Origin: Candidatus Bathyarchaeia archaeon
GTDB lineage: Archaea; Thermoproteota; CALKCG01; B24; JAGTQN01
Direction of reading: 5' to 3'
NCBI GenBank assembly: GCA_038850515.1
Contig: JAWCLV010000001.1
Coordinates: 7,155 to 71,154, forward strand
Length of the DNA: 64,000 bases
The notes under the pieces were generated by a model that was given only the letters and a program-made list of their open reading frames with translations, was not told where the DNA came from and ran no database searches. Below, piece after piece: positions 2,765 to 39,770 of the stretch. Position 1 is the stretch's first letter; each line of letters starts with the position of its first letter. Made by a program: the position numbers and the translations under genes.

Positions 2765-2804
2765 TAACCCTGTCCAATCTCTAGAATCTGGAAATTATGA
2801 TTCG

Positions 2805-9851: not shown

Positions 9852-10398
9852 AAGTTGATATATCTACCTCTCTTTTCTTTTTTAATGCTTTGTGGCTTAA
9901 TTATTTCTTGTTTGAGTCTTGCCTCTGGTTTCATAGTTTCTTTTTGCTTTGTTCTTATAGGTTTATTAGCATATGTATTTTGGCTACTAATACCTTCTCT
10001 ATGTTCTCTACTGTTTTACCCATCAGTATTTTTAATTTCGTTCGTTAAATAATATGAATTACGCTCTAAATAGAAACTAAATCCTAAGCGAGGCAGTCAA
10101 GCGAAGGCTTTAGGACTTCTTTCTTTAGGTCTATCCTATACTTTCCTTGTAAATGCCATAAGCCATTAAGGCATACAAAGACATAGATTGAAGTCTGGAT
10201 GGGCACTACAACCATGTAGGGATCGTACGGCTCTGAGGAAGGCTTTATGCGAACCTTCAGAATCCGAGCCCTTACTATGCTAAGCCTCGAGTGGAGGAGG
10301 TGATCTGGAAGGCTTAAGGTTACAACACTCCCCATAAAGCACAATACTTATAGACATAAATCCCATAACCTCTCAGCCAAGTAAGGGGAGTTAAATTC

Positions 10399-11400
10399 TT
10401 GGCCAAAGAGTTAAGGATTGGGCTTATTGGATGTGGCAGCCAAGGAAGGACTCTCTCTACAGTGCTAGGAAGGATCGATGGATGTAAGCTTATAGCAGTA
10501 GCAGATGTGAACGAGACTATAGCGAAGCAATTTGCTGAGGAGTTCAAAGTTGAAAACTACTATAGAGACCATTATGAGTTACTGGAAAAGGGGGATGTGG
10601 ATGCTGTACTCGTTGCTGTTCCTCACTTTGCGTTGAAAAACGTGTCCATAGATTGTCTTGAAGCGGGAAAGCCAACTTTTGTTGAAAAACCAATGGCAAA
10701 GAACAGTATTGAAGCAAAGGAGCTGGTTAAAGCCGTTGAGAGAAGTGGAGCAACACTCATGGTTGGATACTGCCAACGATTCTTAGCTTCTAGATCATTG
10801 ATGAAAAGTTTCCTTGATAAAGGTATCGTAGGAGAGGTTTCTTTAGTTCTCGCGATGAAGGGGACTGGCCTGCTCCGCGGATGGTTACTTGAGGAGCCTA
10901 AGGGTGGAGGCATACTAAGGTATCTGGGCGTACATCTCATAGATCAAGTTTTATGGATGATCGGAAGCAGACCTGAGGAAGTGCTTGCCGAGGTAAACGT
11001 TCATCCAACCTTTGGAGTTGACGAAACCGTCTCCTTCATTATTCGATTTAAAAATAGTGTTTTGGCGAGCCTTAGCCTGACAATGCGGGCATCTAAATCG
11101 ATCGACTCTGTAGAAGTCATTGGGTCAGACGGTCATATGAAAAGCGAATGGAGGGATAATTATCTCTTAGTTCATAGCTCAAAAATGATCGAGTATGCAA
11201 ATCCTACAACGATCAGGTTTATGGAAGATCCCACTTATCCTATGTTTGAACGTGAACTTAGGGAGTTCATAGCTTCAGTTATAGAAAACAGAATGCCCTC
11301 CATTAATGTACTTGATGGCTTAAGAGTTCTCGAAGTCGTTGATGCCGTTTTAGAGTCGGCCCAGTTGAAGAGGGCTGTAAAGATTCCGCACTACTCATAA
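10399..11400 (+). CDS. Gfo/Idh/MocA family NAD(P)-dependent oxidoreductase
   Basis: N-terminal Rossmann motif LRIGLIGCGSQG; EKPMA motif; typical ~330 aa length. Confidence 0.85.
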   Translation: MAKELRIGLIGCGSQGRTLSTVLGRIDGCKLIAVADVNETIAKQFAEEFKVENYYRDHYELLEKGDVDAVLVAVPHFALKNVSIDCLEAGKPTFVEKPMAKNSIEAKELVKAVERSGATLMVGYCQRFLASRSLMKSFLDKGIVGEVSLVLAMKGTGLLRGWLLEEPKGGGILRYLGVHLIDQVLWMIGSRPEEVLAEVNVHPTFGVDETVSFIIRFKNSVLASLSLTMRASKSIDSVEVIGSDGHMKSEWRDNYLLVHSSKMIEYANPTTIRFMEDPTYPMFERELREFIASVIENRMPSINVLDGLRVLEVVDAVLESAQLKRAVKIPHYS

Positions 11401-11568: not shown

Positions 11569-13515
11569 ATGACTACCGAAACAGAAAAGACAGAGACTAT
11601 TACAACGATCAGAGAGCCTGGATCTCCCGATATTAGCTATAGAAATGGATTGACCTTCAGATCTTTTCTAGCCCTCATCTACACAGGCGTAGTATTTCTC
11701 CCTGCGAGCATCTGGATGACATTGGCTTTAGGAAATGCGGACATTATGTGGTGGACTATATCTTATACGACTGTGCTACTTTTCAGCGAAATCACGAGGT
11801 TCTTTGGTACGCCACTTAGTAAACAGGAACTCTTCATTATATGGTCTTGCGCTGCAGTCTCTGGTGCAACCGTATCGGCTACGGGCTTCATCTTTAATCT
11901 TTACTACAGGAATGTAAGTTCGTATACCTTAACTTTTACAGCGCCTGGAACAAACACTCCTTTACGCGAAGTTATTCCTGACTGGTGGGCTCCTCCGCCA
12001 ACCTCTACCGCTATTATAGAAAGAACATTGTTCCATCCCGACTTTCGAGTTCCAATATTCATCTCATACTTCAGTGTCGCCTTTGGCCTCTTATGTGATA
12101 TAGGTCTAGGGCTTTTGACATACAATCTCTATGTAAAAATCGAGAAATTGCAATTCCCACTGCAGAGGGTTTCTGGGGAAATGGTTGTCACTGTAGCAAC
12201 GAGGGAGTCTAGGAAGATGAGCGTCATGGTCATCGCTGCCGTCATAGGCCTGGCTTACGGCACCTTGGCCTTCGGATTGCCATTTGCCACAAACTTTGCT
12301 ATGGCTCCAATTCCGATACCTTGGGCCGAGATCCCCATAGATGCGATCGTGCCTGGAGCAACCCTTGGCTTTGCAACAGACCTTTTTGTGTTTGCGACAG
12401 GCTTCATAATACCTTTCAATGTGGTTGTATCGATCTTCATAGGTTCATTAGGTCCTTATGTTATCGGAAATCCTATACTCGTATACCTTTTCCCACCAGC
12501 ACCTGGAAGGTTGGGAGGCCTTTTTGGTTACGCCTCGGGTATGCGGATTAGAGATATTTGGAACATGTCGATGCTCCGAATTTGGGCAAGCCCGAACATC
12601 GGAGTAAGCTTAGCAGCAGGATTGATACCATTAGCACTTAACTGGAAAAGAGTTTGGGGCATTCTTACAAGGTCTTTAAGGGCTTTGATGGGGGGTGGAA
12701 AGGGAGCTAGGTTATCGCTTCTCCCTATCGTTCTATGGCTTGTAGGAGTTATACCTCTCACGGCAATCCCCATCATTCTTGTGCCAGGCTTCCCGGCATG
12801 GATTTTAATCCTTCTCGGGCTTGGAATGCCTCTTTTAAGCTCCATCATAGCGGGAAGGGGGATTGGCGAAACTGGATACGCGATTAGCATCCCGTATGTG
12901 CGTGAAGGGGCTTACCTTGCAAGCGGATATCAAGGAATAGACATTTGGTATACAAGCCCACCTTTAGGAGGTGGTGGAGCAGGAATTTGCGCAAACTTGG
13001 CGGTATGCGATATGACTGAAACGAGTCACAGGAGTTGGATACTTGCATACATAATAGCGATGGCCTTAGCTTTGTTGTTAGGTTTTCTCTATGTCGAGGC
13101 CTTTTGGAGGATTTCGCCGATCCCCTCCTCATCTTATCCTGCCACAGTCATCTTCTGGCCCATACAAGTCCTGAATAGCGTCATCTGGGTTTCAAGATCG
13201 CAGATATCGTGGGTTCCTGAGAACATCATTTTCGCATTCGTGATATCGAGTGCTGCGACCATTACTTGTCACTTCCTTAAGTTCCCATTCTCAATCATAG
13301 GTTTCGCCGCTGGATTTAGTCAACCTATACCTCAACCCCTATCTCTCTTAGTTGGTGGCATCATCAATCTCTTCCTGACTAGAAAGATAGGAAAAGGTTG
13401 GACTGACTACAAGATTATCGCGATTGCTGGATTGGCGCTTGGCGAAGGCGTAGCAGCAGCCATCGGCTCTATTATTGCCCTAATAAGAAATGCTGCCTGG
13501 TCCCTTCCCTATTAA
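11569..13515 (+). CDS. Polytopic integral membrane protein (putative transporter), paralog B
   Basis: 648 aa with many TM helices. Shares NGLTFRSF.../...FSIIGFAAGFSQP.../...IAIAGLALGEGVAAAIGS blocks with the 7866-9851 protein. Confidence 0.6.
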   Translation: MTTETEKTETITTIREPGSPDISYRNGLTFRSFLALIYTGVVFLPASIWMTLALGNADIMWWTISYTTVLLFSEITRFFGTPLSKQELFIIWSCAAVSGATVSATGFIFNLYYRNVSSYTLTFTAPGTNTPLREVIPDWWAPPPTSTAIIERTLFHPDFRVPIFISYFSVAFGLLCDIGLGLLTYNLYVKIEKLQFPLQRVSGEMVVTVATRESRKMSVMVIAAVIGLAYGTLAFGLPFATNFAMAPIPIPWAEIPIDAIVPGATLGFATDLFVFATGFIIPFNVVVSIFIGSLGPYVIGNPILVYLFPPAPGRLGGLFGYASGMRIRDIWNMSMLRIWASPNIGVSLAAGLIPLALNWKRVWGILTRSLRALMGGGKGARLSLLPIVLWLVGVIPLTAIPIILVPGFPAWILILLGLGMPLLSSIIAGRGIGETGYAISIPYVREGAYLASGYQGIDIWYTSPPLGGGGAGICANLAVCDMTETSHRSWILAYIIAMALALLLGFLYVEAFWRISPIPSSSYPATVIFWPIQVLNSVIWVSRSQISWVPENIIFAFVISSAATITCHFLKFPFSIIGFAAGFSQPIPQPLSLLVGGIINLFLTRKIGKGWTDYKIIAIAGLALGEGVAAAIGSIIALIRNAAWSLPY

Positions 13516-13664: not shown

Positions 13665-15674
13665 ATGAATGCTTCAATGGACTTTGCTTTTCCAGTCTCA
13701 GAAAAACAGAAGGAACTGGAGAAAAAATTTTGTCATGTTGTAGACTTTAAAAAAGCTTACGATTGGACCGTGGAGATGTGTAAAGTAGGGCCCAAGGGTG
13801 TAAACCAGCTCATGGGAATGCCCGAAAACATAAAGAAAGCCGAATACATCGCCAAACGGTTGAAGGAATGCGGGCTTCATACCGAAGTACAAAGCTTCGA
13901 ATGTGAACGTCACGATGTATTAGAATGCTCGCTTACCATCATATCACCAAAGAAAGTTGACATTCCATGCACACCGATGATTTATGGAAATGCCACAAAA
14001 CCAGAGGGGGTTTCTGGAAGTCTCCTGTATGTCGGAAGAGGTTGGGAAGAGGACTATAAGAAATTGGAGAGGAGAGGTATAGAGGTAAAGGGAAAGATCG
14101 TTCTTATGGACGGTTTTTGGGCGAGATCCAGGCTTATTCTGGCTAGGATCCATGGTGCTGTTGGAGCAATAGTGGCTACAAGGCTTAACTACAGCTATTT
14201 TGAAGGCCCAGCGGGTGGCTGGCATAGGCCTATACGCATGCTTCCAAAGGGTTCTACCTATGCATGGCTCGAGCATCAAGAAGATTATATGTTCTATAAG
14301 TTCCCTGAAGAGAGTTTACCCATGATACCAGCTGTGACGGTTCAAAGGAAGGATGGTGCCTATCTCCGAAGTCTATGCCGAAGAGAGGACGCGAAGGTCT
14401 TAATCAAGGTCATTAAGAATGTTGAAAGGAAACAAGCATTTAACGTTGTCGCCACAATCCCTGGTTCCGAGTTTCCAGATGAAGTAGTAATGGTGGGGGC
14501 GCATTATGATTCGTTCGGTAGAGGTGTTCTCGACAATTCGAGTGGGTGTGGGGTTATCCTTGGTGTTGCGCATGCCTTCGGAGAACTTATGAAAGAGGGT
14601 ATTAGACCTCGCAGAACTTTAAAATTCTGCTTCTGGACAGGAGAAGAAGAAGGATGCGTCGGCTCTTATGCCTATTTGGATGAACATGAATCTATCAAGA
14701 ATAAGATCGTAGCCTATATTGATGTCGATGGAGGAGTTTTCGGTAAAGACCTTATCACGGGTGGATGGGGTTCTCCAGAACTCGGATCGCTTAGCAAATA
14801 CGTAGCTGCTTCTGTCGTTCCAGGGCTTAAGGCTGGAGGTTATGGTCTTGTACGAGGTGCAGGATTTGATATGATCGTGTTCTTCATCGATGGCTGCATT
14901 CCAGTAACGAGCCCAGTTGTAACTCGCGGTGGGAAGGATTGGGTGGGTAAAAGGTTAACTCCTTACCTCGTTAAGTCTAACCCTTACCATGGACCCGCTG
15001 ATGAGCCTGAACCTGAGAGACTCCTTAGACCTGATCGGTTTAAGGAACCGATTGAAGGGCTTGGAGTAATGCTTCTCACTCTATCTGAGTCTGATGTTCT
15101 TCCTCTAGACTACAAATGCTATGCTAGAATGCTTATGGAAGGAAAGGAAGGCCTTCGTGACCTTGCAAAGAAAGCATCTAAGTTTGGCATAAACTTAGCC
15201 GGAGCTTTAAAAGAGCTCGAAAAGATGGAGATCGAAGCCGAGAAATTGAATAGGGTTTTAACCCTAAGCTTATGTGCCTATCTGAAGGCGACTGGTCAGG
15301 GACCTTGGGAAGGAAACCTAGACGATAGACTTCTTCGAGAAGTTTCAAGACTTCCTAAAGAACTTCCTAATGAGAAAACGGAGGCACTGAGGAGATATTT
15401 CAGATTGGCTAACCTTATTCGACGTCTTGTGATAACTCCTGAACTAAAGGCAACCTGCTTTTGTATAGACGGTGCATACCTCTATACATTGCCTTGGATT
15501 CAACCTGTACGATATTCTAGGGCATTGAGGTCCCATCCAGAGAAGTTGCATAGGATCGAGATCGAGGCTCAAGTTCTTGAACAGACTTTCCGGAGAATTA
15601 ACACAATCATGGAAGACCTCTCGATGATAGGTGAGAGACTTATCTATGAAATTCTCCCGAATAATGGTGACTAA
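13665..15674 (+). CDS. M28B family metallopeptidase with PA domain and C-terminal TfR/PSMA-like helical domain (glutamate carboxypeptidase II-like)
   Basis: VVMVGAHYDSFGRGVLDNSSGCGVIL and WTGEEEGCVGS give the canonical M28 Zn ligands (H-D, DNxSG, EE). A PA-like insert lies upstream and a helical dimerisation-like C-terminus follows. There is no obvious signal peptide, which is ambiguous. Confidence 0.8.
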   Translation: MNASMDFAFPVSEKQKELEKKFCHVVDFKKAYDWTVEMCKVGPKGVNQLMGMPENIKKAEYIAKRLKECGLHTEVQSFECERHDVLECSLTIISPKKVDIPCTPMIYGNATKPEGVSGSLLYVGRGWEEDYKKLERRGIEVKGKIVLMDGFWARSRLILARIHGAVGAIVATRLNYSYFEGPAGGWHRPIRMLPKGSTYAWLEHQEDYMFYKFPEESLPMIPAVTVQRKDGAYLRSLCRREDAKVLIKVIKNVERKQAFNVVATIPGSEFPDEVVMVGAHYDSFGRGVLDNSSGCGVILGVAHAFGELMKEGIRPRRTLKFCFWTGEEEGCVGSYAYLDEHESIKNKIVAYIDVDGGVFGKDLITGGWGSPELGSLSKYVAASVVPGLKAGGYGLVRGAGFDMIVFFIDGCIPVTSPVVTRGGKDWVGKRLTPYLVKSNPYHGPADEPEPERLLRPDRFKEPIEGLGVMLLTLSESDVLPLDYKCYARMLMEGKEGLRDLAKKASKFGINLAGALKELEKMEIEAEKLNRVLTLSLCAYLKATGQGPWEGNLDDRLLREVSRLPKELPNEKTEALRRYFRLANLIRRLVITPELKATCFCIDGAYLYTLPWIQPVRYSRALRSHPEKLHRIEIEAQVLEQTFRRINTIMEDLSMIGERLIYEILPNNGD

Positions 15675-15736: not shown

Positions 15737-18700
15737 TTACAATTTAGCCTCCATATACCGTTTCTTCTCATGATCCCTGAGACTTCGCCATATTAGAAGT
15801 TGCCTTCGGACTTCACTTATGAAGGATTTATTAAGGTGCTGCCAACTCGATTGTTCTCCTGTGAGCCTTTTAAGGAATAGGGTGTAACTCGCCCTACCCT
15901 CAGTTATAGATGCATTAAAGATAACACGTTGAGATATCCCCCGCGGATAAGGTTCTATCGCTACGGTCGCTATTAGAGACTTAACGGTAATGTTATTCGT
16001 AGCTCTCTCCTCTATGGAGAGATTCTGAGCGAAAAAGACTGGCGACTCATCTCTGATCATATGTCCCTCATAAAATTCCTTCATAAATGCTATTATCCCT
16101 TTTGCCTCATCCTCGCTGGAGACAAAGGGCAAGGGAATTTCCCAAGTATCTCCTTTAGGCTTAGTCGGGACCTTCCACTTTCTTTCAAGAGAAGGTGTTA
16201 CTAACCTTGCGCATTTATAAATTGGATAGATGGCTGAGGAGGTCGTTAACCCCATAGAGAGCAGTACTACGGCTACTACCATGATTGAAGAATAATTCAC
16301 GGCTACTCCATAGAATCTATACGCTCCGGAGGCGATGATGATGCCAAAGAGGTATCCTAAGGTCCCTCCTAAAATAGCATATATGCCTGCCTCCGTAAGG
16401 AATATACTTCCGACATGCAAGGGAGATAGACCAACAGAGGCAAAGGTGGATATTTCCCTCCTCCTCTCTATTACGTTGCCTAACATGATGTTGAAAAGGC
16501 TAAGGACTCCTATTATAGAGGGGAGTATTATGAAAGTTAGTCCACTTACTTCCCTTGAGACTCCGTGAGCAAACAAGTAAACTCTTTCTCCAGTAGAGGC
16601 ATAGACATCGAAGTCATAGTAGAGAGTTATAGATTCTGCTAACTCCTTAACTTTGACGGGATTCTCGATATCCAAAGCCACTTGGGTAATAAAGGGCCCC
16701 CAAGTAGCTAAGCGCCTCATCACAGCGTTAAAGGGCATGAGAAGAACCTCATAGCCTCGAAGGGGCTGTCGCTTTCTCCAATCAGAGGGATCGAAGGGCA
16801 TAATGGGTCTCCCATCAAGTTCCTTTATACTTTCTAGGAGTTTTGCATCAAAGATTCCACAAACTCTCATCTGAATACCATTAACTCTAATCAGGGTTGA
16901 AGATGGATCGGACATACTGATGTTCAGGTAATCGGCATAGTCTTTACTTATGAGAACAAATAATTCATCCTCTGATGGGAACCAGACCCCATCTAGAAGT
17001 ATCTGCTCTATCCTCTGTATATCTCCTTGGTAAGCTATATTCAATTCATTCTCAGAAATTCCAAGGATTGCAGCCGCCGTACGCCATGAGTCTCCAGAAG
17101 AGATATTCAGAAGTCCCCTCGCATATGGATCATTAAAATCGCCAGGCATATTCCCCGTATGGATGTTGTATAACCATGCCCTAGGGGCTATCGATACCCC
17201 CTCACTATAGACGCGCCTAATTCCCTCTAATAATTCTTCCGAAATAGGCTGAATACCCCTGAAAGGATCTATCCAAGCTGCTACGAGTAGGCCGACCCGA
17301 GTAGGCTCTCCTCCCGTGGGAAGTTGCAGTGTTATGCTGTGTACAGACATAGAAGTCATCGAAACCAAAGCGAGGGCGATCATTAAGATTGATGTGAAGG
17401 TTAGGGTCGTCCTAAGCCTCCGCTTTCTCATCTGCTGGACTCCGTAGGATAGCGAGAGTAAAATGGCCCCCGTTCTGCTTATCTCCGCGAAATGAAGCCC
17501 TACAACTGCTCTCCGCCATTCCAAGATTCTTGACTGAGCGTGACCGCCCAGAATTGGTACGAGGGGTAATGTAAGAGCCATCGTAACGAAGCCTATCAGG
17601 ACAATTAACATATTTGCACCTAGATGGAAGCCTGCATGAAAAAGAGCGAACGTGCCTATTGCCATAATAAAGATCATAATGATGCCTAGAAGCCTCCTAG
17701 GACCGTTCCACGAAAGGAAAAGCCTTTCAGCTAGGAAAACGAAAGGGACAAGGAGAGCGAAGAAGAACATCGTTGAGCTAATCGTCTCGTTATATAAACT
17801 CAGAATTCTGGCGTAGGCTCTGGTCTCAACTCCTAAAGCCCGCTGAGCATTCGTAAGGGCGAGTCCATACGACCTGTTCTCAAAAGCGTCCCGAGAAGCA
17901 TCCAAGATCAATTTAGCTACGTCATGAAGCTGGTTTGCGGCGGGTTCAAAAACATTAAATTGGAGGAATGTGTTGATTCTTTCGTTATTCAGTAACCACA
18001 TATCTTCAGCATTCTTAAGCAAAGCATTCGTCACGAGAAGTTGTCTTCCGTATTTGACCTCGTACCCATTACCTTGGGGTCGTATCCTTGATGAGTTCAA
18101 AATAATTGCGGATGGTATAGGCACATCAGCTTGAAAGGCGATCGCCTCAACCCTTGTCCCAGGTTCTAAGAAGGCAACCACGATGGGACTTGCTTCCCGA
18201 GGGAAGAAACTGTAATGGGCGGGCGTAGAGTGGGTATTGAAGTCCATAATTCGGAAGACGCTTGAGGCAAAACCGGTTCTGGGTGCTAATAAGTCGAAGA
18301 AAGCAACAGAACCGCACTTAAAAATAGTAAAATACTGCGGATATTCTTGAGTGCCGATAATGCCCCCCCTCCATATCGTTATCTGTACATCATTTCCGAA
18401 ACTGTATATTCCAAAATCCGGAGCGTATTCGATAGTACCGTTTTCGTCCAGATAGAAGGGATATATTCCATAGTTTGTGCCGAATGCTGTTATCCCCACG
18501 ACAGTGAATAGGCCATCCTCATCGGTTGTAAGGATATACCTATAAAGGCCTGGCCCCTGAATAGCTACTAGAGCTTTTGAAACTCCCTCGTATTGGTTGA
18601 TTGAGGGATTAAAAGTTACAACTCTTCCGAATAATTTTCCGTAGTTAGCCCCATAAAGACGCCCACCAATACGCGTGACCTCTGTAGAGAGTTCCTTGAG

Positions 18701-20197
18701 TTGGGGCTCCGCCTGTAGCATGTAAATTGCGGAAAATATGGTTTCAATTTGGGGTTGGAGATTATTCCATAGCAACCGATCATATGTATCGAATGGAGTC
18801 GAGTAGTACTTTCGTTCACTATAAGCTGTATAGAAGGAGAATCCATTCGCCCCTGCCGCTAAGTAAGGCTCACTATCCATAACTATGTGATTGGGCTCGG
18901 GGGCTCTAGAGCCTGGGTAGTATGGGTCAAGATCTATCCTGAAAGCTCTGTCATATACAGTCTTCCAAGCATCTATTATCTGAGGTGTGTAAACATCCTT
19001 AAACCTATCATAGATCCATCGAACTGCTTGGAAAGCAGGGCCTCGAGTACCATAGCCTAGTGCGCATACATCTCCTGCTCCCAGGTTAACTACCCAGTCA
19101 TTGTCTGTGGCTAGGTCAAGATTTATCAGGATTGGGAAGTAGGTCATATCCATTAAGCCCACTTTACTCTGCCATCTTCTCTCGAAGAGAAATAGTTCCG
19201 TAAACTCCCTTGCCCCTAACAAAGCTTGGTTATGCCCAGCGAAGGCTACAAACATTATGGTTCTATCAGGTCCCCGTTCCCTTTTACTATACTCCGAAAA
19301 GAAACGTGCTAATTCGAGGAGCGTTGAGATGCCTAGAGATTCTTGTGCACCTGGTGCAAAACTTGGAGTAATAGAGTAAGAATCATAGTAAGCTGTAAGT
19401 ATGAGGGACTGTTCAGGCATTTTCTTGCCATAGATGAATCCAATTACATTCTTTGCCGTTCTTTGCTCAAAGCGCATATTATAAAGAACCCTAACAGTTT
19501 CGTTTATAGCCTCTTTGAGCATAGAACCGTCAGGCTCGGGGACGAAGATTCTAGGGAAATCTAATGGAATCCAGAGGCTCTTCTTAATAGCATCATACCT
19601 ATCACCTTCTCCTATAAAGACTACGGCCTTCGCACCTAATTTAGCTGCGTTAATCCAATTGTCCTTACTTCCAGAGAAATCCATGAGTACGATACTATCT
19701 TCAATTTCTTTTTTGCTCATCTCTTCCAAGTAACCTTTGCCAACATAAACGAGCTTGCCAGTTAATCCCTCATGAGATCTTAGACTAAGTTGAACCATGT
19801 TTGGCTCGAGGGTGTAGGCTTTGAGGACCCACTTCTCTTTTCCATCATGACCGAGTAAAGAAATGCTCGCACCATAGTCGATGGGTACTGTCACGTTAAA
19901 TTCATGGAATTCTACATCCACTAAACCTAAATTCTGAAAATATTGTCGAATATACTCTGCTGCAGCATCACATCCAGAATAACCTGAATATCTCGATTCT
20001 AAACTAGAAAAATATTTGGTATGGAGCATAATTTTAGAAATATTAATATTTCTAATGACCTCTACGATTTCATTTTTTCCTACAATATTGCTATTTGATG
20101 CGTGTATAGGTCGATTTAGGAATACTAAGCTCCACAGGAATACAAATGTTAATAAAAAAATTAAAGAATGAATGATCAACTTCCTTGCTGGAAACAT
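15737..20197 (-). CDS. Giant membrane protein: N-terminal signal/TM, PA/M28B-like domain with degenerate active site, extra TM helices, complete MacB/FtsX-type permease module, and a cytoplasmic C-terminal tail
   Basis: 1486 aa. The M28-like block AYYDSYSITPSFAPGAQESLGISTLLELARFF...FVAFAGHNQALLGAREF has His/Asp replaced (YYDSY, QE instead of DD). FtsX TM1 is MRKRRLRTTLTFTSILMIALALV, followed by a ~260 aa extracytoplasmic loop. FtsX TM2-4 is ILPSIIGVLSLFNIMLGNVIERRREISTFASVGLSPLHVGSIFLTEAGIYAILGGTLGYLFGI...LLSMGLTTSSAIYPIYKCARLV. The tail after TM4 is ~149 aa. Confidence 0.8.
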   Translation of the reverse strand: MFPARKLIIHSLIFLLTFVFLWSLVFLNRPIHASNSNIVGKNEIVEVIRNINISKIMLHTKYFSSLESRYSGYSGCDAAAEYIRQYFQNLGLVDVEFHEFNVTVPIDYGASISLLGHDGKEKWVLKAYTLEPNMVQLSLRSHEGLTGKLVYVGKGYLEEMSKKEIEDSIVLMDFSGSKDNWINAAKLGAKAVVFIGEGDRYDAIKKSLWIPLDFPRIFVPEPDGSMLKEAINETVRVLYNMRFEQRTAKNVIGFIYGKKMPEQSLILTAYYDSYSITPSFAPGAQESLGISTLLELARFFSEYSKRERGPDRTIMFVAFAGHNQALLGAREFTELFLFERRWQSKVGLMDMTYFPILINLDLATDNDWVVNLGAGDVCALGYGTRGPAFQAVRWIYDRFKDVYTPQIIDAWKTVYDRAFRIDLDPYYPGSRAPEPNHIVMDSEPYLAAGANGFSFYTAYSERKYYSTPFDTYDRLLWNNLQPQIETIFSAIYMLQAEPQLKELSTEVTRIGGRLYGANYGKLFGRVVTFNPSINQYEGVSKALVAIQGPGLYRYILTTDEDGLFTVVGITAFGTNYGIYPFYLDENGTIEYAPDFGIYSFGNDVQITIWRGGIIGTQEYPQYFTIFKCGSVAFFDLLAPRTGFASSVFRIMDFNTHSTPAHYSFFPREASPIVVAFLEPGTRVEAIAFQADVPIPSAIILNSSRIRPQGNGYEVKYGRQLLVTNALLKNAEDMWLLNNERINTFLQFNVFEPAANQLHDVAKLILDASRDAFENRSYGLALTNAQRALGVETRAYARILSLYNETISSTMFFFALLVPFVFLAERLFLSWNGPRRLLGIIMIFIMAIGTFALFHAGFHLGANMLIVLIGFVTMALTLPLVPILGGHAQSRILEWRRAVVGLHFAEISRTGAILLSLSYGVQQMRKRRLRTTLTFTSILMIALALVSMTSMSVHSITLQLPTGGEPTRVGLLVAAWIDPFRGIQPISEELLEGIRRVYSEGVSIAPRAWLYNIHTGNMPGDFNDPYARGLLNISSGDSWRTAAAILGISENELNIAYQGDIQRIEQILLDGVWFPSEDELFVLISKDYADYLNISMSDPSSTLIRVNGIQMRVCGIFDAKLLESIKELDGRPIMPFDPSDWRKRQPLRGYEVLLMPFNAVMRRLATWGPFITQVALDIENPVKVKELAESITLYYDFDVYASTGERVYLFAHGVSREVSGLTFIILPSIIGVLSLFNIMLGNVIERRREISTFASVGLSPLHVGSIFLTEAGIYAILGGTLGYLFGIIIASGAYRFYGVAVNYSSIMVVAVVLLSMGLTTSSAIYPIYKCARLVTPSLERKWKVPTKPKGDTWEIPLPFVSSEDEAKGIIAFMKEFYEGHMIRDESPVFFAQNLSIEERATNNITVKSLIATVAIEPYPRGISQRVIFNASITEGRASYTLFLKRLTGEQSSWQHLNKSFISEVRRQLLIWRSLRDHEKKRYMEAKL

Positions 20198-20464: not shown

Positions 20465-21349
20465 ATGGAAGAATCGAGACCAAGGGTTAGAATAAGGCCG
20501 ATGAGGCTTGAGGATATTATCTCCGTTGTTAGGATTGCCAACCAGTCCTTCCTGGAGACTGCTAGGCTTACGAAGCTTATGGGCCAGAGGTTTGCCCATT
20601 ATATGAGACAATGGCCCGATTGGCTTTTCGTGGCTGAGACTTTCGAAGGAAGGGTTGTGGGCTTCATCTTCGGAAGCCCTGAGGGCGAAGCCCATGCCTC
20701 AATCCATTGGATAGCGGTCCATCCTGAGTTTCAAGGGATGGGAATAGGAGGTATGCTTTTAAAAGCCATAGAGGAAAAGGCTATGGGCTTAGGTCTTAAG
20801 GCCATCCTTACTGGTACGCCCTTCGCCCTTCGCTTCTACGAAAAGTATGGTTTCAAATGCGTAGGCATTCGAAGGCGCCTCGTTCTAGAACTCGTTGGAA
20901 AAAGCCTGGAGCCTCCTGAAGGCTTGGAAAGCTGTCCTATAGCCTTGGAGGGACTTAGGGACTTTATCCCTCTTATGAATCGCGAAGAATACTTACGCTT
21001 CCTATCAGCCTACTTCAGCGTCTACGAATCGGATCCCGATAAGGCATTAGCCGCGCTTGCGGATAACCGGATCGTAGGTATCCTCATCGGTCGGAGGAAC
21101 GAGGTCTATCCCGATCTTGTTACGCTAGACTATATTTTTGTTAAGGATTCGGCGTATGCCTATAGTATGCTTAAGCTCTTCGCCTATAGAGCCTCTACGG
21201 GCGGTTATAGATGGGTCGGGGTGGAGCTTCCAATTCCCTACTTGGAAGAGGGGGAACTCCTTAAGGAGGGCTGGCAGGATGCCCGGCTACCGTCCTTTTG
21301 GACAGGCTATCAGCTACGAAAGGATCTTCATCTTCAGGATCAGGAATGA
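20465..21349 (+). CDS. GNAT family N-acetyltransferase (with C-terminal second, degenerate GNAT-like half)
   Basis: HWIAVHPEFQGMGIGGMLLKAIEEKAMGLGLKAI and ...FYEKYGFKCVG match the acetyl-CoA binding motif A/B region. Confidence 0.75.
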   Translation: MEESRPRVRIRPMRLEDIISVVRIANQSFLETARLTKLMGQRFAHYMRQWPDWLFVAETFEGRVVGFIFGSPEGEAHASIHWIAVHPEFQGMGIGGMLLKAIEEKAMGLGLKAILTGTPFALRFYEKYGFKCVGIRRRLVLELVGKSLEPPEGLESCPIALEGLRDFIPLMNREEYLRFLSAYFSVYESDPDKALAALADNRIVGILIGRRNEVYPDLVTLDYIFVKDSAYAYSMLKLFAYRASTGGYRWVGVELPIPYLEEGELLKEGWQDARLPSFWTGYQLRKDLHLQDQE

Positions 21350-23376
21350 AGGGATGGAAGGCGAAGGCTATGTTTAGGAGAATCTTCGATACGATAGGAC
21401 CCTATGTATCTGGAACGAACGCCCTAGACTTGATCGCCCACATCCATGACTACGATCGATGGTCTTCCTTTGATAGGCATCATGAGGCTGCCCTCTATTG
21501 CCTCCGTAAATTGGAGGAGTATGGCCTTGAAGGCGAGATCTTCGAGCTCCCTGCGGATGGTGAAAAGCTTTATGGAGACTGGGTCATGCCGAGGGCTTGG
21601 AAGGCCAAATCGGCGAAGCTGACGCTTCTATTGGAATCTAAGGGCGAAGGCGATGGTGAGGGTGAAGTAAAGCTTTGCGACTATAACGAGGATCCATGTT
21701 CCCTCGTTATATACAGTAAGCCCACACCTCCTGAGGGCGTTACGGCTGAGCTTGTTATGGTTGATGGAGGCTCCAAAGCCCAAGATTATGAGGGCTTGGA
21801 AGTCGAGGGAAAGGTCGTCTTCACAAGGGATTCGGCTAGGGCTTCCCGCCTTGAGGCTTTGAGGCATGGCGCCCTTGGCGTCGTATCGGATTATCTTCCC
21901 ATCATCGATTACTACCGTCCGCCCATGGAACTACCCGACTGCCGCTACTGGGATAGGTTCAGCTCAGACTTTGGAGGCTGGGGCATGAAGAAGGGAGACC
22001 CCGAGTTCTGGGGCTTCGTCCTAACGCCTAGGCAAGGACATTGGCTTAGGGAACTCATGCGCGAGGGAAGGAAGCTTCAAGTCCATGCGGAGATCGATGC
22101 CTCCTTCTATGACGGCTCGATCGATGTAGTAACAGGATGGATCAAAGGCGAAACCGATGAGGAGGTCCTGATAAATGGGCACTTGTACGAGGTCGGCGCC
22201 ATAGACGATGCGAGCGGTTGCGGTCTAGCAATAGAGGTTTTGAGGTGTCTGAACTCCCTCATCAGATCCGGAAGGCTCAAGAAGCCTAGGCGAGGAATAA
22301 GGATGCTCTTCACTTATGAGTGTATGGGGACTATGGGAGCCCTTTTGGAGAAGCCTGAGCTTCTTCAACGAACCATCGCGGCCATAACCCTGGACTGCGT
22401 AGGAGGGAAGGAAGCCCTATGCCGGGCCTTCTTAGGCCTCTCGAGGAATCCCCATGCCCAAAGCTCCTATACGGATACCCTCCTAAGGCTCATCCTTGAG
22501 CATTCAACCCGGGCGGATAAGATGCTGGTTAATTGGCGCGAGGTCCCCTTCCTGAAGGCCGATAATATGATCGCAGATCCATCCATAGGGATTCCATGTC
22601 CCCTTCTAATCGAGTATCCCTATACCTTCTACCATTCCTCCATGGATACACCCGACAAGATCGATCCTAGAAGGCTCGCCTGGATAGGTCGTGCTGTCGC
22701 AACATACGCATACTTTATCGCCAATGCTGGAGAGGTCGAAGCCCAATGGCTCGTTTCCGAAGTTCTCAACGAGGCCCAAAGGGCCATGCTCGATGAAATG
22801 GGGGGCTTCCTAACTCCTTTTTACGAAACGTATAGCAAGGAGAAGGAGCGAGGCGAAGCGAAGGCCTTGGAAAGGCTCTGGCGAAGGCTAAACTACCTGC
22901 AAACCCGCTATGGAATCGCCATCGAATCCGTAGCTCGCCTTTCTGGAGGCGAAGGCCTTCGAAAAAGGATTGAAGAGGCTAAGGAAGATCTAAGAGCCTA
23001 TGCTTCCATGAGCCTCAAAAGGGCAAGCAGGGAGCTTGGACTTCAGCCAAGGAAGCCTAGAAAAAGGCGATGGATGGATATGGATGGATACAAGCGCGAG
23101 GCATCCCGACTTGTGCCAAAACGTCTCGTACTAGAGTCTTGCCAAATGACCCGGATACCAGCCGAGGAGCGAAAAGAATGGCAGAGGAAATGCCATGAAT
23201 GGGGATTGAAGGGATCCGTTATCCAATCGGCTCAAATGTGGTGCGATGGAGTCCGCTCTGTGGCTGAGATAGAGGAACTTGTGGAGGGTGAAACGGGCGA
23301 ATCCAACATACGCCTTCTTGATTACTTTAAGGAGATGGAGCGCTACGGATACATAAAATGCGAGAAAAGGCGTTAA
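21346..23376 (+). CDS. M28-like aminopeptidase-domain protein (DUF4910/aminopeptidase-like architecture)
   Basis: GHLYEVGAIDDASGCGLAIEV (His, DDxSG) and FTYECMGTMG (partial EE) are M28-like. I prefer the start at the ATG overlapping the GNAT stop (ATGA) rather than the track's 21298. Confidence 0.65.
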   Translation: MKGWKAKAMFRRIFDTIGPYVSGTNALDLIAHIHDYDRWSSFDRHHEAALYCLRKLEEYGLEGEIFELPADGEKLYGDWVMPRAWKAKSAKLTLLLESKGEGDGEGEVKLCDYNEDPCSLVIYSKPTPPEGVTAELVMVDGGSKAQDYEGLEVEGKVVFTRDSARASRLEALRHGALGVVSDYLPIIDYYRPPMELPDCRYWDRFSSDFGGWGMKKGDPEFWGFVLTPRQGHWLRELMREGRKLQVHAEIDASFYDGSIDVVTGWIKGETDEEVLINGHLYEVGAIDDASGCGLAIEVLRCLNSLIRSGRLKKPRRGIRMLFTYECMGTMGALLEKPELLQRTIAAITLDCVGGKEALCRAFLGLSRNPHAQSSYTDTLLRLILEHSTRADKMLVNWREVPFLKADNMIADPSIGIPCPLLIEYPYTFYHSSMDTPDKIDPRRLAWIGRAVATYAYFIANAGEVEAQWLVSEVLNEAQRAMLDEMGGFLTPFYETYSKEKERGEAKALERLWRRLNYLQTRYGIAIESVARLSGGEGLRKRIEEAKEDLRAYASMSLKRASRELGLQPRKPRKRRWMDMDGYKREASRLVPKRLVLESCQMTRIPAEERKEWQRKCHEWGLKGSVIQSAQMWCDGVRSVAEIEELVEGETGESNIRLLDYFKEMERYGYIKCEKRR

Positions 23377-36075: not shown

Positions 36076-36570
36076 ATGGATTCGCTCCAGAAGGATTTTA
36101 GTGAAAAATTGAAAACTATTACAACAGACCCGCTCCTTTCCATACTTCTTTCCCAGAGCCATCTTACCGAAAAACAATTACAAGCCATACTTATTGACCT
36201 TTTTTTCTCAAAAAACTCACAAAAAAGAATTTCTTCGAGTGAAAAAGCTCAAATAATGCCTAAAAAATTGAAAAGAGGAGCATATAATAGGATATTGAAT
36301 CAGGGAAGGAGGAACATCATAAGGGCTTTCTTCACGATCTATTTACTCGGTTACCTTGAAATCTTGGATCTGGAAGACCTGGAGGCTCATATCACCTTAG
36401 GGAAGGGGATAAAAGCCTATATAGAAACATATAGAGAAGCCCTAGCACGAGGTTTTTCCTCGGAAGAGGCTAAACGGCTTCAAATGATCTATAAGGAACT
36501 CATCGAGAAAGTAAAATATTTAGCTAAACCGATTTCCCTTAAGGGAAGCTCAGGATCACAAAATATGTGA
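36076..36570 (+). CDS. Hypothetical small protein, translationally coupled to the downstream giant FtsX-fusion gene
   Basis: 164 aa. Its stop overlaps the next start (ATGA at 36567). The basic region KKLKRGAYNRILNQGRRNIIRAF could bind nucleic acid. A palindromic operator-like site lies upstream. Confidence 0.5.
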   Translation: MDSLQKDFSEKLKTITTDPLLSILLSQSHLTEKQLQAILIDLFFSKNSQKRISSSEKAQIMPKKLKRGAYNRILNQGRRNIIRAFFTIYLLGYLEILDLEDLEAHITLGKGIKAYIETYREALARGFSSEEAKRLQMIYKELIEKVKYLAKPISLKGSSGSQNM

Positions 36571-39500
36571 CATCACAGATCACAAGAAATGAAAAGGAAA
36601 TTTTTATATCCCATGAATTTTTTCATTATAGAGCTCTTTGCCAGAGGGTCTTACGAGTGTACAAAGCTAAGCTAAAATTACCGCCCCTCATCATACTCTT
36701 GGCATTTATGTTTTCGGTATTCGCATCACCATCGTATGCCTTTCAAGGAACAACCCTAAACATCTACGGCTTCGTAAAGGACTATAGGGGAATACCTATA
36801 CCGAATGCAACCCTTGTTATCCTCGACTGGACAACACTACAATACCGTCTTTGCTCGACAGACGCCAAAGGATACTACTCCCTTGAGGTCCCTCATATCG
36901 ATTATTACGGAACCCATCAATACATTGTATATGCTTTGCATTTCGACAATAATGGAACGATAGATTATGTTCCAGCCGTATATCCTACAAACCTATACGA
37001 TCCCTATGCTAGGATAACGACCTCTAGGGAGGTTTCCTTTCAACTTTTCCCAGGCGCTTCGATAACAGTAAAGGGGAGCCTCTGGTATGTCCTAAGCTCC
37101 CAAGTCCCGCGATGGTATACCTTAGAAGTCATCGATGCTACCACAGGAGGGTCGTACATTTTCGAAAACTCCATCCCTGTCTTCGGGAATCCCCCATATC
37201 GCTATGGAATAGGCTGTGATGTCCGCTTTATCCCTCAATCCCTAATAAATAGGCAAACGGTTGTGATACCGGCCGATAAACCTACCTACATTCTCGTGAA
37301 GGCTGAGTTCTTCAACGACAGGACAAATCGCTTCCAAACAGTTTCCTTCCTCATAGGATCTGAGGAAGGAGCCTTCACCCTTAGAAAAGGAGAACGTGCC
37401 ACGATGGACATTAGCGTTTATTCTGCTACCTTCAACCTAGAGGTTCTTTTAGGTTTAGTGAAGGAAATTGAGGGGAAAATCACGGAGGCAGAGCGCGTAG
37501 GCTTCTTTGTGGGAGGGGAAAGGGACGATCTTCGAAAGATAGGAATGACCCTCTCAAGAGCCCAAGCGAACCTTCCCCCTGTCAATCCAAATCCAGATGA
37601 GGATACTCTGCGACAGACTCGCTTCCTTCTCCTCGAGAAGTCCTATAATGATCTGAAACTTCTGGAAAGGCGTGTGGATCCAAACACGGGTGATATGTAC
37701 GTCATCTCCCAATCTCACTCAGTTTTCTTTCCACCTTTCTTCGCCGTCTTTGCAGTCATCTTGGCTTCTTTCCTTTTCGAGAATAATCGAAGAAAGATAG
37801 CCACCTCGATGATAATCTATCCTCTTATGATAGTGGGACTTTACTTCGTATACCCTGGGGTGAAGGTAATCTTCAACACCGAAGTCGTTATTGGGATCAA
37901 GGGATTCTGGACCGTTTCCATTCAGGGTGGAATCTTTTTCTTCAGCATCGTCATCCTTGCCATTATTGCCAGTCTCTTAGCCTTCTTCCTCTTCCCTAAG
38001 GTTTACAGGGAGCCCATTGTAGAAGGAAGGGCACCCCTTACTAGCGTCCTTTCAACAATCTTTTCCATCGGTAAAAGAAACGTTAAGCGCCGAAAGCTTA
38101 GAAGCTCCCTTGCCATCATTGCCATCATGATCCTCATAACTGGCTTTACAGCCCTTACTTCCCTTTCTTGGATCTACGGTCTTGTGAAGGAGACGCCAAA
38201 ACCCGTCAACACCTCGGCTGCAGGGGTCCTTATTATGAAGATTCCGAGTAACGAGACCCGTCCACACCTACGTTCCCAATTATTCAATTCCTTGGAGAAT
38301 GCCTCCCTTTTCGATTATGGAGCCCTTTCCTTAGTACCTAAGGTGGAGAATATCCCATCCCCCGATCCCGTGCTTTTTGTGAAGGCATCCAAAAGTGCGG
38401 CTCAGCCTTTACCCATTTATGGAGTCCTGGGAATAGCCCCAAGTCTCGAGGAAGGTCTAACGGGGGTTGGTCGGTTCATCGTAGGAGGCGAGCTTAGGGA
38501 TGACGACGAAGAGGGCGTCGTTATGAGTAGGAAGCTGGCTGATGCCTTGGGTGTACGGATAGGGGGGACCATAGAGGTCTATAGATCCGATATGAGCGTT
38601 GTCAAAAACTTTACCTTAAGGGCTTTCTTGGAAGATGGCTTCTTCGAAAGCCTTGACCTTGATGGGAATAGCCTTCCCCCTTCAAAACTCAAAGGTTCAG
38701 ATATCGTGAAAACAAACCAAACGGAGACCTTGCTCTTCACACCAAAGGCTGCGCTAAAAATATATGAAGAGGAAAAGTCCGGAATAGGGATCTCAAGGAT
38801 CTTTGTCAAGCTATCTTCTACATCCGAGGAGACTCTTTCCGAATTTGCCCAAGCCATGGTTCATAAAGGCTATACGGCCTGGGTCTTTAGAAACGGAATG
38901 GCGACAAAGTATTACATAGGATCCGTCTTTAAAGTGGAAGGCTTAGAGCAGTTTCTCATACCCTTTGTCCTCGTTGTGCTTAATGTAAGCCTTGTTATGA
39001 TGAACCTTCTCCACGAAAGGGCTAAGGAAGTTAGCATCCTTTCCATGGTTGGACTGAACCCCGGCCATATAGCGACGGTTTTTATGGCAGAATCCATAGT
39101 CATGGGCCTTGTAGGCGGCGGCTTAGGCTACTTCCTTGGTTTAGGTATGTACCGTCTTATGTCCTTCCTCTCGCCAGAAAGCCAGATAGCAGTCAGGGAG
39201 AAGCTGGAGTGGTACTGGGGCGTCGTTTCGATTGCGATAGCCCTTCTCGTAGCCGTCGTATCAGCCATACGCCCAGCCATAAAGGCTGCCATGTTGGCGA
39301 CCCCATCTATGGTGAGGAAGATGAAGGTCACCCAAGAGGAACGCCTGAAGAGGGATAAGGAGATCTTCAAGGTCTATTTGGGCCGAGAATTCGGGCTTCC
39401 GATAAGGGTTCACGAAAGGGAGGAACCCTTCTTCTCTTCCTACTTAACGGATAGACTAAGGGAGCTTATGACAGGTCTCTACGATAGAGTGGAGGAATTC

Positions 39501-39770
39501 TCCCTAGATGAGCAGGTGTTGGCTGACGGGACGAGGGTTAAGCGATTCCTCTTTAACTACATCATCATCGAAGGTCGAAACCAATATACCACTGTTAATG
39601 AGATTATAGCCAGAAAGAAGCCCCAAACCGATTTCTACACCCTATCCCTCCTTTCCAAACCGAAATCCCCAGGTCTTCCTGAGCATATTACGGAAACGAC
39701 CCTTACCTTGGTTAAGGATCTAGTTCTCGATTGGGATAGGGAGAAAGGAAGGATTATCGGGAAAATCTAG
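36567..39770 (+). CDS. Giant membrane protein: signal peptide, CarboxypepD_reg-like domain, extracellular region, extra TM helices, complete MacB/FtsX-type permease module, and cytoplasmic C-terminal tail
   Basis: 1067 aa. Signal LIILLAFMFSVFASPSYA. LNIYGFVKDYRGIPIPNATLVILD matches a CarbopepD_reg fold. FtsX TM1 is KRRKLRSSLAIIAIMILITGF, followed by a ~300 aa loop. FtsX TM2-4 is FLIPFVLVVLNVSLVMMNLLHERAKEVSILSMVGLNPGHIATVFMAESIVMGLVGGGLGYFLG...AIRPAIKAAMLATP. The C-terminal tail is ~150 aa. Confidence 0.8.
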   Translation: MTSQITRNEKEIFISHEFFHYRALCQRVLRVYKAKLKLPPLIILLAFMFSVFASPSYAFQGTTLNIYGFVKDYRGIPIPNATLVILDWTTLQYRLCSTDAKGYYSLEVPHIDYYGTHQYIVYALHFDNNGTIDYVPAVYPTNLYDPYARITTSREVSFQLFPGASITVKGSLWYVLSSQVPRWYTLEVIDATTGGSYIFENSIPVFGNPPYRYGIGCDVRFIPQSLINRQTVVIPADKPTYILVKAEFFNDRTNRFQTVSFLIGSEEGAFTLRKGERATMDISVYSATFNLEVLLGLVKEIEGKITEAERVGFFVGGERDDLRKIGMTLSRAQANLPPVNPNPDEDTLRQTRFLLLEKSYNDLKLLERRVDPNTGDMYVISQSHSVFFPPFFAVFAVILASFLFENNRRKIATSMIIYPLMIVGLYFVYPGVKVIFNTEVVIGIKGFWTVSIQGGIFFFSIVILAIIASLLAFFLFPKVYREPIVEGRAPLTSVLSTIFSIGKRNVKRRKLRSSLAIIAIMILITGFTALTSLSWIYGLVKETPKPVNTSAAGVLIMKIPSNETRPHLRSQLFNSLENASLFDYGALSLVPKVENIPSPDPVLFVKASKSAAQPLPIYGVLGIAPSLEEGLTGVGRFIVGGELRDDDEEGVVMSRKLADALGVRIGGTIEVYRSDMSVVKNFTLRAFLEDGFFESLDLDGNSLPPSKLKGSDIVKTNQTETLLFTPKAALKIYEEEKSGIGISRIFVKLSSTSEETLSEFAQAMVHKGYTAWVFRNGMATKYYIGSVFKVEGLEQFLIPFVLVVLNVSLVMMNLLHERAKEVSILSMVGLNPGHIATVFMAESIVMGLVGGGLGYFLGLGMYRLMSFLSPESQIAVREKLEWYWGVVSIAIALLVAVVSAIRPAIKAAMLATPSMVRKMKVTQEERLKRDKEIFKVYLGREFGLPIRVHEREEPFFSSYLTDRLRELMTGLYDRVEEFSLDEQVLADGTRVKRFLFNYIIIEGRNQYTTVNEIIARKKPQTDFYTLSLLSKPKSPGLPEHITETTLTLVKDLVLDWDREKGRIIGKI

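Follow-up and report, generated by a model that had tools for sequence, protein, structure and literature searches.

We analysed a 64,000-nucleotide (nt) stretch of a Candidatus Bathyarchaeia archaeon (contig JAWCLV010000001.1), here called the window, meaning the full 64 kb. Within it we studied the 1486-amino-acid (aa) protein encoded by the open reading frame (ORF) 15737..20197 on the reverse strand, which we call the fusion. The fusion is a permease of the type VII ABC kind (ABC, ATP-binding cassette) with a pseudo-enzyme fused in cis and a secondary-transporter partner, a combination that is unreported in the literature we found. It probably serves as a subunit in a nutrient-handling machine of a new kind, not as an ATPase-free receptor. 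Type VII ABC systems (MacB, LolCDE, FtsEX, BceAB, YbbAP) have been studied almost only in bacteria, and their extracytoplasmic partners are separate proteins. The family described here fuses that partner in cis and is linked to OPT permeases, about whose roles in prokaryotes little is known.

The gene is one open frame of 1486 codons with no interruption. By BLASTP the closest database protein, P0001, was 100% identical to the fusion over its full length, and P0002, of equal length, shared 66% identity. A single-residue difference was seen at the C-terminus (window 15740-15760), where P0001 ends ...RYMETKL and the window translation ...RYMEAKL. The protein database search returned more than 150 further homologs of 1375-1564 aa, with query coverage of 93-100% in nearly all. 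These same-length, full-length homologs rule out a frameshift artefact or a mis-joined gene pair, the condition under which the preliminary description would have withdrawn its single 1486-aa fusion; the gene is therefore real and does not represent two joined genes.

That description had not recognised the architecture, which seemed unique, and here the phyletic survey gave a different picture, that of a large conserved family in two domains of life. Of 1.84 billion cluster representatives, 1,576 were matched by a profile of the C-terminal tail, 1,354 of them at E<=1e-10, and every match lay at the C-terminus; the family with a common tail thus comprises at least 1,350 clusters at 50% identity. 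Its members come mainly from Bathyarchaeia, Thermoproteota, Brockarchaeota, Asgard archaea and Armatimonadota. Shorter tail-bearing proteins were considered as new architectures and rejected, being N-truncated fragments of the same family. The window matched a contig of Candidatus Bathyarchaeota archaeon QZM_A2_bin_28 at 97% identity across a 267-aa tail match. Our literature search found no publication on the fusion family, on DUF6785 or on any association of FtsX with OPT proteins, and the fusion proteins currently stand in the database as 'M28 family peptidase'.

Pfam searches of the fusion returned Peptidase_M28 at residues 250-485 (46.8 bits against a cutoff of 21.3, E 3.9e-12), FtsX (PF02687) at residues 1221-1331 (E 1.5e-11, above the gathering score) and a weak PA match at residues 146-221 (E 0.015); a Pfam match to MacB_PCD was absent from the window fusion itself. 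A census over 28 diverse relatives found M28 and FtsX in all 28, MacB_PCD in 18 and PA in 17, and the overall domain order first described agrees with these searches. Single-sequence hydropathy, a family-mean hydropathy profile and the AlphaFold model concurred on eight transmembrane (TM) helices. These are an N-terminal anchor (residues 8-24 in the family-mean profile), three linker helices after the ectodomain (807-823, 836-852 and 867-883), where five or six extra helices had been counted before, and the four peaks of the FtsX fold (931-947, 1223-1239, 1271-1287 and 1307-1323). Three linker helices make for a self-consistent topology, in which the ectodomain lies outside, the linker and elbow inside, the MacB-type loop outside and the tail inside.

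By fold as well as by sequence, the C-terminal module genuinely belongs to the MacB/LolCE/FtsX superfamily. When a profile of residues 790-1486 was searched against the PDB, it matched MacB (E 3e-22), Spr0695, YtrF, LolF, LolC/E and FtsX. The AlphaFold2 model of the module (predicted local distance difference test, pLDDT, 82.9) gave Foldseek matches at a probability of 1.0 to 5xu1, MacB, LolC/E, HrtB, YtrF, YbbP and BceB. The 268-aa loop between TM1 and TM2 reached target TM-scores of 0.5-0.63 against isolated MacB periplasmic domains, and the MacB_PCD family (PF12704) was matched with a best E of 1.3e-10 among the 18 positive relatives. The elbow, TM1, the 268-aa loop of Porter/Sabre type, TM2-4 and both coupling-helix motifs are all present, which bears out the complete MacB/FtsX module, with a loop of ~260 aa, that had been proposed from the letters of the gene.

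The module also carries the hallmarks of coupling to a nucleotide-binding domain (NBD): the elbow MRKRRLRT, the major coupling helix between TM2 and TM3 (ERRREISTFASVGLSP...F.TE) and, after TM4, P..A..LVTPSLER, which aligns with the C-terminal PA.+AAK..PAAALR of ordinary FtsX proteins. Both VYER.REI...S.GL.P.H...F.AE and P..A..LVTPSLER were conserved to an equal degree in the branches whose genes are linked to an ATPase gene and in those that are not. The best sequence and fold matches for residues ~900-1331 were MacB (of MacAB-TolC) and pneumococcal Spr0693-0695, which have in common with the fusion its four-TM FtsX fold, an extracytoplasmic Porter/Sabre-type domain that separates TM1 from TM2, and the major and minor coupling motifs. 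In contrast to these systems, the fusion has its NBD neither in the same chain nor in a neighboring gene, lacks an adaptor or a partner of the TolC type, and has partner genes that encode OPT permeases. The fusion moreover adds an N-terminal pseudo-peptidase ectodomain of ~800 aa with three TM helices, and a 155-aa C-terminal helix-grip domain.

The preliminary description had noted an extra cytoplasmic tail of ~149 aa after TM4; a conserved tail does exist, with a length of ~155-163 aa. Ten of its residues were invariant across 37 sequences, and in its model (pLDDT 93) the fold is alpha+beta, of the helix-grip/TBP-like/KA1-like kind, and a P-loop is absent. The tail is also present, and equally conserved, in relatives whose operon encodes a LolD/MacB-type ATPase. 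As it lacks a P-loop and coexists with an ATPase, it is not an ATPase replacement, and the idea that it stands in for the ATPase finds no support.

We next turn to the ectodomain. The M28 domain of the fusion was aligned to the active product of a neighboring gene (13665-15674) and to the solved PA-aminopeptidases 2ek8 and YwaD/6hc6, and an active-site census was taken over 120 relatives of the fusion. The zinc and catalytic residues of the fusion are replaced (H by Y270, D by Q285, the EE pair by H322/N323 and the last H by S466), leaving D361 as the sole co-catalytic ligand position retained. At motif level HHDS has become YYDS, (A/V)NDxSG has become AQESLG, GxEExG has become AGHNQA, and YHTPxD has become YSTPFD. 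None of the 120 relatives had the canonical M28 ligand set; the Glu-Glu pair was absent in 119 of them and the last His likewise in 119, and a His at position 270 was kept by ~40% of family members. Judged by its active-site residues, the M28 domain is catalytically dead, in the fusion and throughout the family, in keeping with the degenerate and likely inactive, PA-bearing M28 domain first described, and having failed the catalytic criteria it should not be filed as a peptidase. The 'M28 family peptidase' label is wrong by this census, with the effect that metagenomic studies of these archaea arrive at inflated numbers of 'extracellular peptidases'.

The pocket was among the best-conserved parts of the protein (D272 100%, G328 100%, E/D286 96%, H322 85%, D361 83%). 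Such strong conservation after loss of the catalytic ligands argues for a retained binding function and not for a decaying relic, and the pseudo-M28 pocket fits a putative binding site.

The nearest solved M28 relatives in the PDB profile search were the PA-bearing bacterial aminopeptidases 2ek8 (E 2.5e-9) and YwaD/6hc6, and the NAALADL and GCPIII matches were 3-6 orders of magnitude weaker than the best. The label 'PSMA/TfR-like' given earlier therefore holds in part: the M28 fold is non-catalytic and has a PA domain (residues 146-221) inserted between an N-terminal M28 segment and the M28 core, but Pfam gave no TFR_dimer match at E<=1 and the best matches were bacterial. A Nicastrin hidden Markov model scored below threshold (13.6 bits against a cutoff of 25, E 0.05), as did a nicalin PDB match (E 1.6e-3, 68 residues only). 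In transferrin receptor, nicastrin and nicalin, as apparently in the fusion, an M28 fold that has lost its zinc ligands and is anchored in the membrane is used for binding; the fusion differs from them in that its nearest solved relatives are active bacterial PA-aminopeptidases and in that no transferrin-receptor-type dimerization domain was found. Speculatively, archaeal membrane-anchored ectodomains that combine pseudo-M28 with beta-sandwiches, including those of Asgard archaea, might have an ancestry link to eukaryotic receptors of the nicalin/nicastrin type.

Gene context was surveyed at 86 loci, comprising 80 species-representative genomes (from a scan with 233 confirmed matches, for which the query was a tail-only alignment) and targeted look-ups; loci are labelled L001 and so on. 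ORFs in these loci were called in this analysis, so the context counts depend on that calling, and taxonomy is as given in the records of the metagenome-assembled genomes. Among loci with enough flank, the gene immediately downstream of the fusion on the same strand encoded a polytopic protein of 620-700 aa, which we call OPTL, in 51 of 59 archaeal and 18 of 19 bacterial cases. The intergenic distance was -17 to +16 nt in L001, L002, L004 and L006. The Pfam family OPT (PF03169) was matched by 9 of 21 OPTL orthologs (best E 7e-18), and the orthologs of L005 and L006 carry precomputed PF03169 matches.

The OPTL of the window (11569-13515) had no direct PF03169 match in Pfam, and was 32% identical to the genes downstream of the fusion in L001 and L002 (E 3e-89 and 8e-83). 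A second paralog, with DUF6785 and DUF6784, was no more than 5 kb away from the fusion in 34 of 64 archaeal loci; hhalign aligned it with the OPTL family along the whole length at a probability of 99.9 (E 7.5e-37, ~590 columns). The PDB held no solved relative of the OPTL profile. In the lineage of the window the order of the block has changed, with the permeases converging on the fusion, as they also do in L007 and L008. On this linkage the fusion very probably functions together with OPT-like proteins. Where the preliminary description saw the extracytoplasmic partner as fused in cis, which would make the protein essentially self-contained, we find it to be one gene of a conserved module with OPT-superfamily permeases.

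To our knowledge, all characterised FtsX-fold proteins work with an NBD. Among the 15 bacterial loci whose downstream flank reached at least 6.5 kb, 14 had an extended cluster, which encodes, besides the fusion and OPTL, a protein of ~280-340 aa that bears Cys/His motifs, a PqqD-like protein, an FtsX protein of ~200-240 aa (sFtsX) that has almost no extracytoplasmic loop, and an ABC ATPase. These loci belong to Armatimonadota/Chthonomonadales, Firestonebacteria, Hebobacteria, Actinomycetota and unclassified bacteria. Two high-scoring matches to the sFtsX profile that were picked without regard to context both lay in such operons, one of them on the L069 contig. All three Asgard loci (two Heimdallarchaeota, one Promethearchaeota) had this set of genes with the ATPase module, next to the DUF6785 gene and the fusion. 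The cluster ATPases had their best scores against LolD, MacB-NBD, DevA, FtsE and YbbA, the subfamily to which the NBDs of type VII systems belong, with DarD also high. In a crude, midpoint-rooted neighbor-joining tree of the C-terminal module, the ATPase-linked fusions formed one clade, and a WOR-3 copy lacking the module nested among archaeal sequences.

Two observations on the clusters may be added. The Asgard clusters have two tandem LolD-type ATPase genes (L002 3048-4461; L093 10618-12081; L094 10627-12120) where bacteria have one, which hints at a heterodimeric NBD pair for two different FtsX-type subunits. The cytoplasmic protein of ~280-340 aa (L004 10613-11458 and orthologs, a cluster of 14) has conserved W.C..C.R and C(P/D)ESN..Y ... 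CH motifs, always occurs with PqqD-sFtsX-ABC, and had no Pfam or NCBIfam match.

Bathyarchaeota keep an orphan sFtsX (L089-L092), detected by a single-sequence search with the Heimdall copy. It is a loop-less protein of 205 aa, highly conserved and 46% identical to the Heimdall sFtsX, with the same TERYKEIGTMKCLGA motif, and in L089 and L090 it lies at ~10001-10618 among GHL6/GHL10/AP_endonuc_2 genes. The B26-2 genome has both a fusion gene (L019) and an orphan sFtsX elsewhere. The sFtsX profile search gave thousands of matches, and none of the few named ones was archaeal. Among the 80 loci listed, at least 14 archaeal genomes held 2-3 fusion copies, bacterial genomes having one each; several paralogous loci per archaeal genome would fit a shared, unlinked ATPase. 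ABC ATPases found near some archaeal loci were rejected as partners, as they belong to ABC-2/DrrA-type or 12TM_1 systems of their own. From the clusters we consider it quite likely that the bacterial and Asgard fusions are ATP-driven. For the Bathyarchaeial fusion, where the retained coupling motifs are what points to ATP, the chances appear evenly divided.

The reading we prefer is that the fusion is the large TM subunit of a type VII ABC-like mechanotransducer that serves OPT permeases in nutrient uptake, with its ATPase supplied in trans in this genome. Taken as a whole chain, this proposal is tentative, and we would put it slightly below an even chance. ATP-driven motions of the NBD would move the FtsX stalk and be transmitted to the fused pseudo-peptidase ectodomain. 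The ectodomain would bind an extracellular oligomer (a peptide, glycopeptide or oligosaccharide) and hand it to the OPT permease or permeases, which would import it for cytoplasmic catabolism. The fusion may pair with sFtsX, or with a second FtsX-type protein of the window (L2, described below), as LolC does with LolE, and the tail would be a regulatory or docking domain, not an energy source. In Bathyarchaeia the NBD would most likely come from elsewhere in the genome, perhaps shared among several paralogous FtsX-type proteins.

Several observations weigh against this proposal. A search for Walker A plus LSGGQ in all six frames of the window found no ABC ATPase, as the preliminary description had stated, and the window likewise has no sFtsX or PqqD gene. 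Among archaeal loci with at least 6.5 kb of downstream flank the ATPase module was found in 1 of 40, that of Heimdall L002, and none of the TACK-type archaeal loci in the survey had it. The orphan Bathyarchaeial sFtsX has no ABC ATPase, PqqD or other cluster member adjacent to it. The enzymes of the neighborhoods are heterogeneous, of sugar type in many loci and of peptidase type in the window. Finally, OPT proteins work by proton coupling, and a need for an ABC partner is not known for them.

Alternatively, ATP coupling may have been lost in the TACK-archaeal branch, with the fusion acting there as an ATPase-independent receptor or scaffold. Its FtsX module would then be a dimeric scaffold, or a transducer of ligand-induced movement to a tail that signals to or gates the OPT permeases. 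The 39 of 40 archaeal loci without a dedicated ATPase, the two FtsX-type proteins and zero ABC ATPases of the window, and the orphan state of sFtsX all speak for it, as does the extreme conservation of the tail; the OPTL linkage is kept in the ATPase-less genomes, so gene order is not generally scrambled there. However, the coupling-helix motifs are as conserved as in ATPase-linked relatives, the tail is no less conserved where an ATPase is present, and a loop-less sFtsX kept in Bathyarchaeota is hard to explain without an NBD. Equal conservation of the coupling motifs and retention of sFtsX argue against the unlinked branch having simply discarded ATP coupling. Characterised FtsX-fold proteins of type VII ABC systems are, as far as is known, all NBD-coupled (abstracts of PMC5985334 and PMC12646458). 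We regard this alternative as unlikely, if a live one for the Bathyarchaeial branch. The ATPase-free surface receptor or regulator suggested at first thus stays in play for that branch but is no longer the best-supported reading.

A hybrid transport machine outside every textbook class seems to us unlikely to a similar degree: a type VII mechanotransducer with a dead-peptidase 'hand' that would capture an extracellular oligomer and feed or gate a proton-coupled OPT permease, and that in TACK archaea would be uncoupled from any dedicated ATPase, working independently of ATP as a bidirectional transducer through the tail. If such uncoupling were true, this would be the first FtsX-fold protein to function without an NBD.

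The genes around the core block bear on the direction of transport. Within three positions of it, archaeal loci had URO-D-like genes (11 loci), TrmB (6), GH130 mannoside phosphorylases (6), GFO/IDH/MocA (5), AsnC (5) and xylose-isomerase-like TIM barrels (4), and further recurrent neighbors were enolase-superfamily (MR_MLE), amidohydrolase and MFS genes. These catabolic, transporter and regulator genes, together with the peptidase-like genes of the window, favour the uptake and catabolism of oligomers over export or biogenesis. A role in export or envelope assembly is accordingly improbable in our estimate. OPT-like proteins would in that case move a peptide or lipid-linked product outward, the MacB-like fusion would extract or expel it, a PqqD-like protein would act as chaperone for a peptide cargo, and at the surface the pseudo-M28 would keep hold of the product. 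Known type VII systems do act outward (MacAB on toxins and antibiotics, LolCDE on lipoproteins), with DevA and DarD among the best-scoring NBD families; the PqqD family, going by its NCBIfam names, consists of peptide chaperones in pathways for ribosomally synthesised and post-translationally modified peptides; and a LolA-like gene lies 1.7 kb downstream of the L004 ABC ATPase gene. Yet no precursor-peptide, radical-SAM or other maturase gene was recurrent in the clusters, the recurrent neighbors are cytoplasmic catabolic enzymes and sugar or amino-acid regulators instead of biosynthetic genes, and characterised OPT-family members import, according to the parts of the literature consulted.

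Very improbable, finally, is an active non-canonical hydrolase in which H322, D272, D361 and E286 form a new catalytic or metal site that processes substrate before uptake: the conservation of these pocket residues and the His270 retained by part of the family would suit it, but the general-base Glu and the second-metal ligands are gone in 119 of 120 members, the window protein has Tyr at 270 and Gln at 285, and we know of no M28 enzyme (MEROPS family M28) that functions with this residue set.

Returning to the proposed mechanotransducer, it can be set beside further known systems. The ATPases linked to relatives score best as LolD, and a putative pairing of the fusion, as the large subunit, with another FtsX-type protein (sFtsX or L2) would be akin to that of LolC and LolE. 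Unlike LolCDE, sFtsX is essentially without an extracytoplasmic domain, and there is no recurrent acceptor of the LolA/LolB type. FtsEX-EnvC/PcsB/RipC and YbbAP-TesA, as far as the portions of their published descriptions consulted go, follow the same concept, in which cytoplasmic ATP hydrolysis is transmitted to an extracytoplasmic module. In contrast to these, the module of the fusion is covalently attached and a dead enzyme, and the link is to secondary transporters and not to cell-wall or lipid hydrolysis. Both permeases of the window belong to the OPT superfamily (TC 2.A.67), whose characterised members act alone as proton symporters; an FtsX-type partner was not found described for them in our literature searches.

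The family occurs widely among those archaea of sediments and hot springs that are believed to break down detrital polymers (Bathyarchaeia, Brockarchaeota, Thermoproteota). If the OPT link is functional, it would be a new combination of a primary-active mechanotransducer with a secondary transporter, and would offer a handle on the acquisition of oligomeric nutrients by uncultured archaea. The ATPase-linked and unlinked branches form a natural experiment on whether the FtsX fold can work without an NBD.

Coordinates of the fusion, of its segments (residue numbers in brackets) and of associated window genes
Feature	Window position	Strand	Basis
Whole gene (FUS): pseudo-M28/PA, 3 TM, MacB/FtsX, tail	15737..20197	-	single ORF and full-length homologs
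N-terminal hydrophobic segment (7-25), signal anchor or signal peptide	20123..20179	-	hydropathy; family-mean peak 8-24
PA insertion (146-221)	19535..19762	-	Pfam E 0.015; best E in relatives 1.7e-7; aligns to PA of 2ek8 and YwaD
M28-fold domain (250-485), with Y270, Q285, H322, N323, S466	18743..19450	-	Pfam E 3.9e-12; residue alignments; family census
Further ectodomain (486-805): beta-rich, CarboxypepD_reg-like at ~533-593, then helical stalk	17783..18742	-	no Pfam family
Three extra TM helices (807-883), returning the chain to the cytoplasm	17549..17779	-	hydropathy, model; conserved E824, H854-P855
Cytoplasmic linker with conserved GxHFxEISR, and FtsX elbow helix MRKRRLRT (884-930)	17408..17548	-	conservation, model
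FtsX TM1 (931-952) and 268-aa extracytoplasmic MacB-type core (953-1220)	16538..17407	-	MacB_PCD in relatives; Foldseek
FtsX TM2-TM4 with major coupling-helix motif ERRREISTFASVGLSP (1221-1331)	16205..16537	-	Pfam FtsX; MacB profile match; motif conservation
C-terminal cytoplasmic tail (1332-1486): minor-coupling-helix-like VTPSLERKW, then beta-alpha-beta4-alpha domain	15740..16204	-	
OPT-superfamily permease OPTL, 648 aa	11569..13515	+	ortholog of the gene directly after the fusion in most other genomes
Second OPT-superfamily paralog, DUF6785 + DUF6784, 661 aa	7866..9851	+	Pfam DUF6785 4.8e-23, DUF6784 1.5e-17
Possible associated paralog L2, 1067 aa: beta-sandwich ectodomain, extra TMs, MacB_PCD/FtsX, tail	36567..39770	+	Pfam; membership tentative

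The second FtsX-type protein, L2, likewise an orphan and similar in plan to the fusion, has a CarboxypepD_reg-like ectodomain in place of M28 and ~150 aa after TM4, and its identity to the C-terminal module of the fusion was 24%. Its CarboxypepD_reg region shows local similarity to the CarboxypepD_reg-like stretch in the ectodomain of the fusion, a part of the protein in which G562, G587, D594, G596, N701 and G711 are conserved. L2 shared homology across 820 aa (E 2e-43) with an FtsX protein of 991 aa that is encoded within the Promethearchaeota ATPase cluster (L094), and L2 orthologs adjoin the fusion block in L038 and L063. The two tails compared weakly (hhalign probability 33%), and the Promethearchaeota ortholog does align to the very C-terminus. 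L2 may be a partner of the fusion or a paralogous system. A 164-aa ORF that overlaps the L2 start (36076-36570, forward strand) was considered as PqqD-like; this was unsupported, with no Pfam family and a BLASTP E of 3.7.

In the window, OPTL is followed after 149 nt by the gene 13665-15674 (forward strand), whose 669-aa PA+M28 product has intact HxD, DNSSG and EEEG motifs and, by inspection, no N-terminal hydrophobic segment. A further M28/DUF4910 gene (21298-23376, forward strand) also flanks the fusion; by pattern search its product is without HxD and EE motifs, and it may be non-canonical. Upstream of the OPT paralog (1526-7646, forward strand) several large genes follow one another; their products are a C45/AAT-like Ntn-hydrolase of 412 aa, a transglutaminase-core protein of 669 aa and a protein of 892 aa without family. 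A FAD-oxidoreductase-like gene, also of 412 aa, adjoins the fusion in L001, and the equal length to the 412-aa gene of the window is coincidental.

One Bathyarchaeia clade (L018, L021, L024, L025 and L029; ~4650-5520) had a TrmB-family regulator of the sugar type, encoded on the strand of the fusion and ~650 nt upstream of it; between the two, on the opposite strand, lies a 177-aa gene. Another clade (L061, L077 and L084) had an AsnC-type regulator just upstream of the DUF6785 paralog that precedes the fusion. Elsewhere in the window, the ORF 32141-33334 (reverse strand) has an Orc1/Cdc6-type Walker A, FIYGKPGTGKT, consistent with an archaeal window. The intergenic stretch beside it (33335-33919, ~600 nt, with a lower G+C stretch of 0.42) could hold a replication origin.

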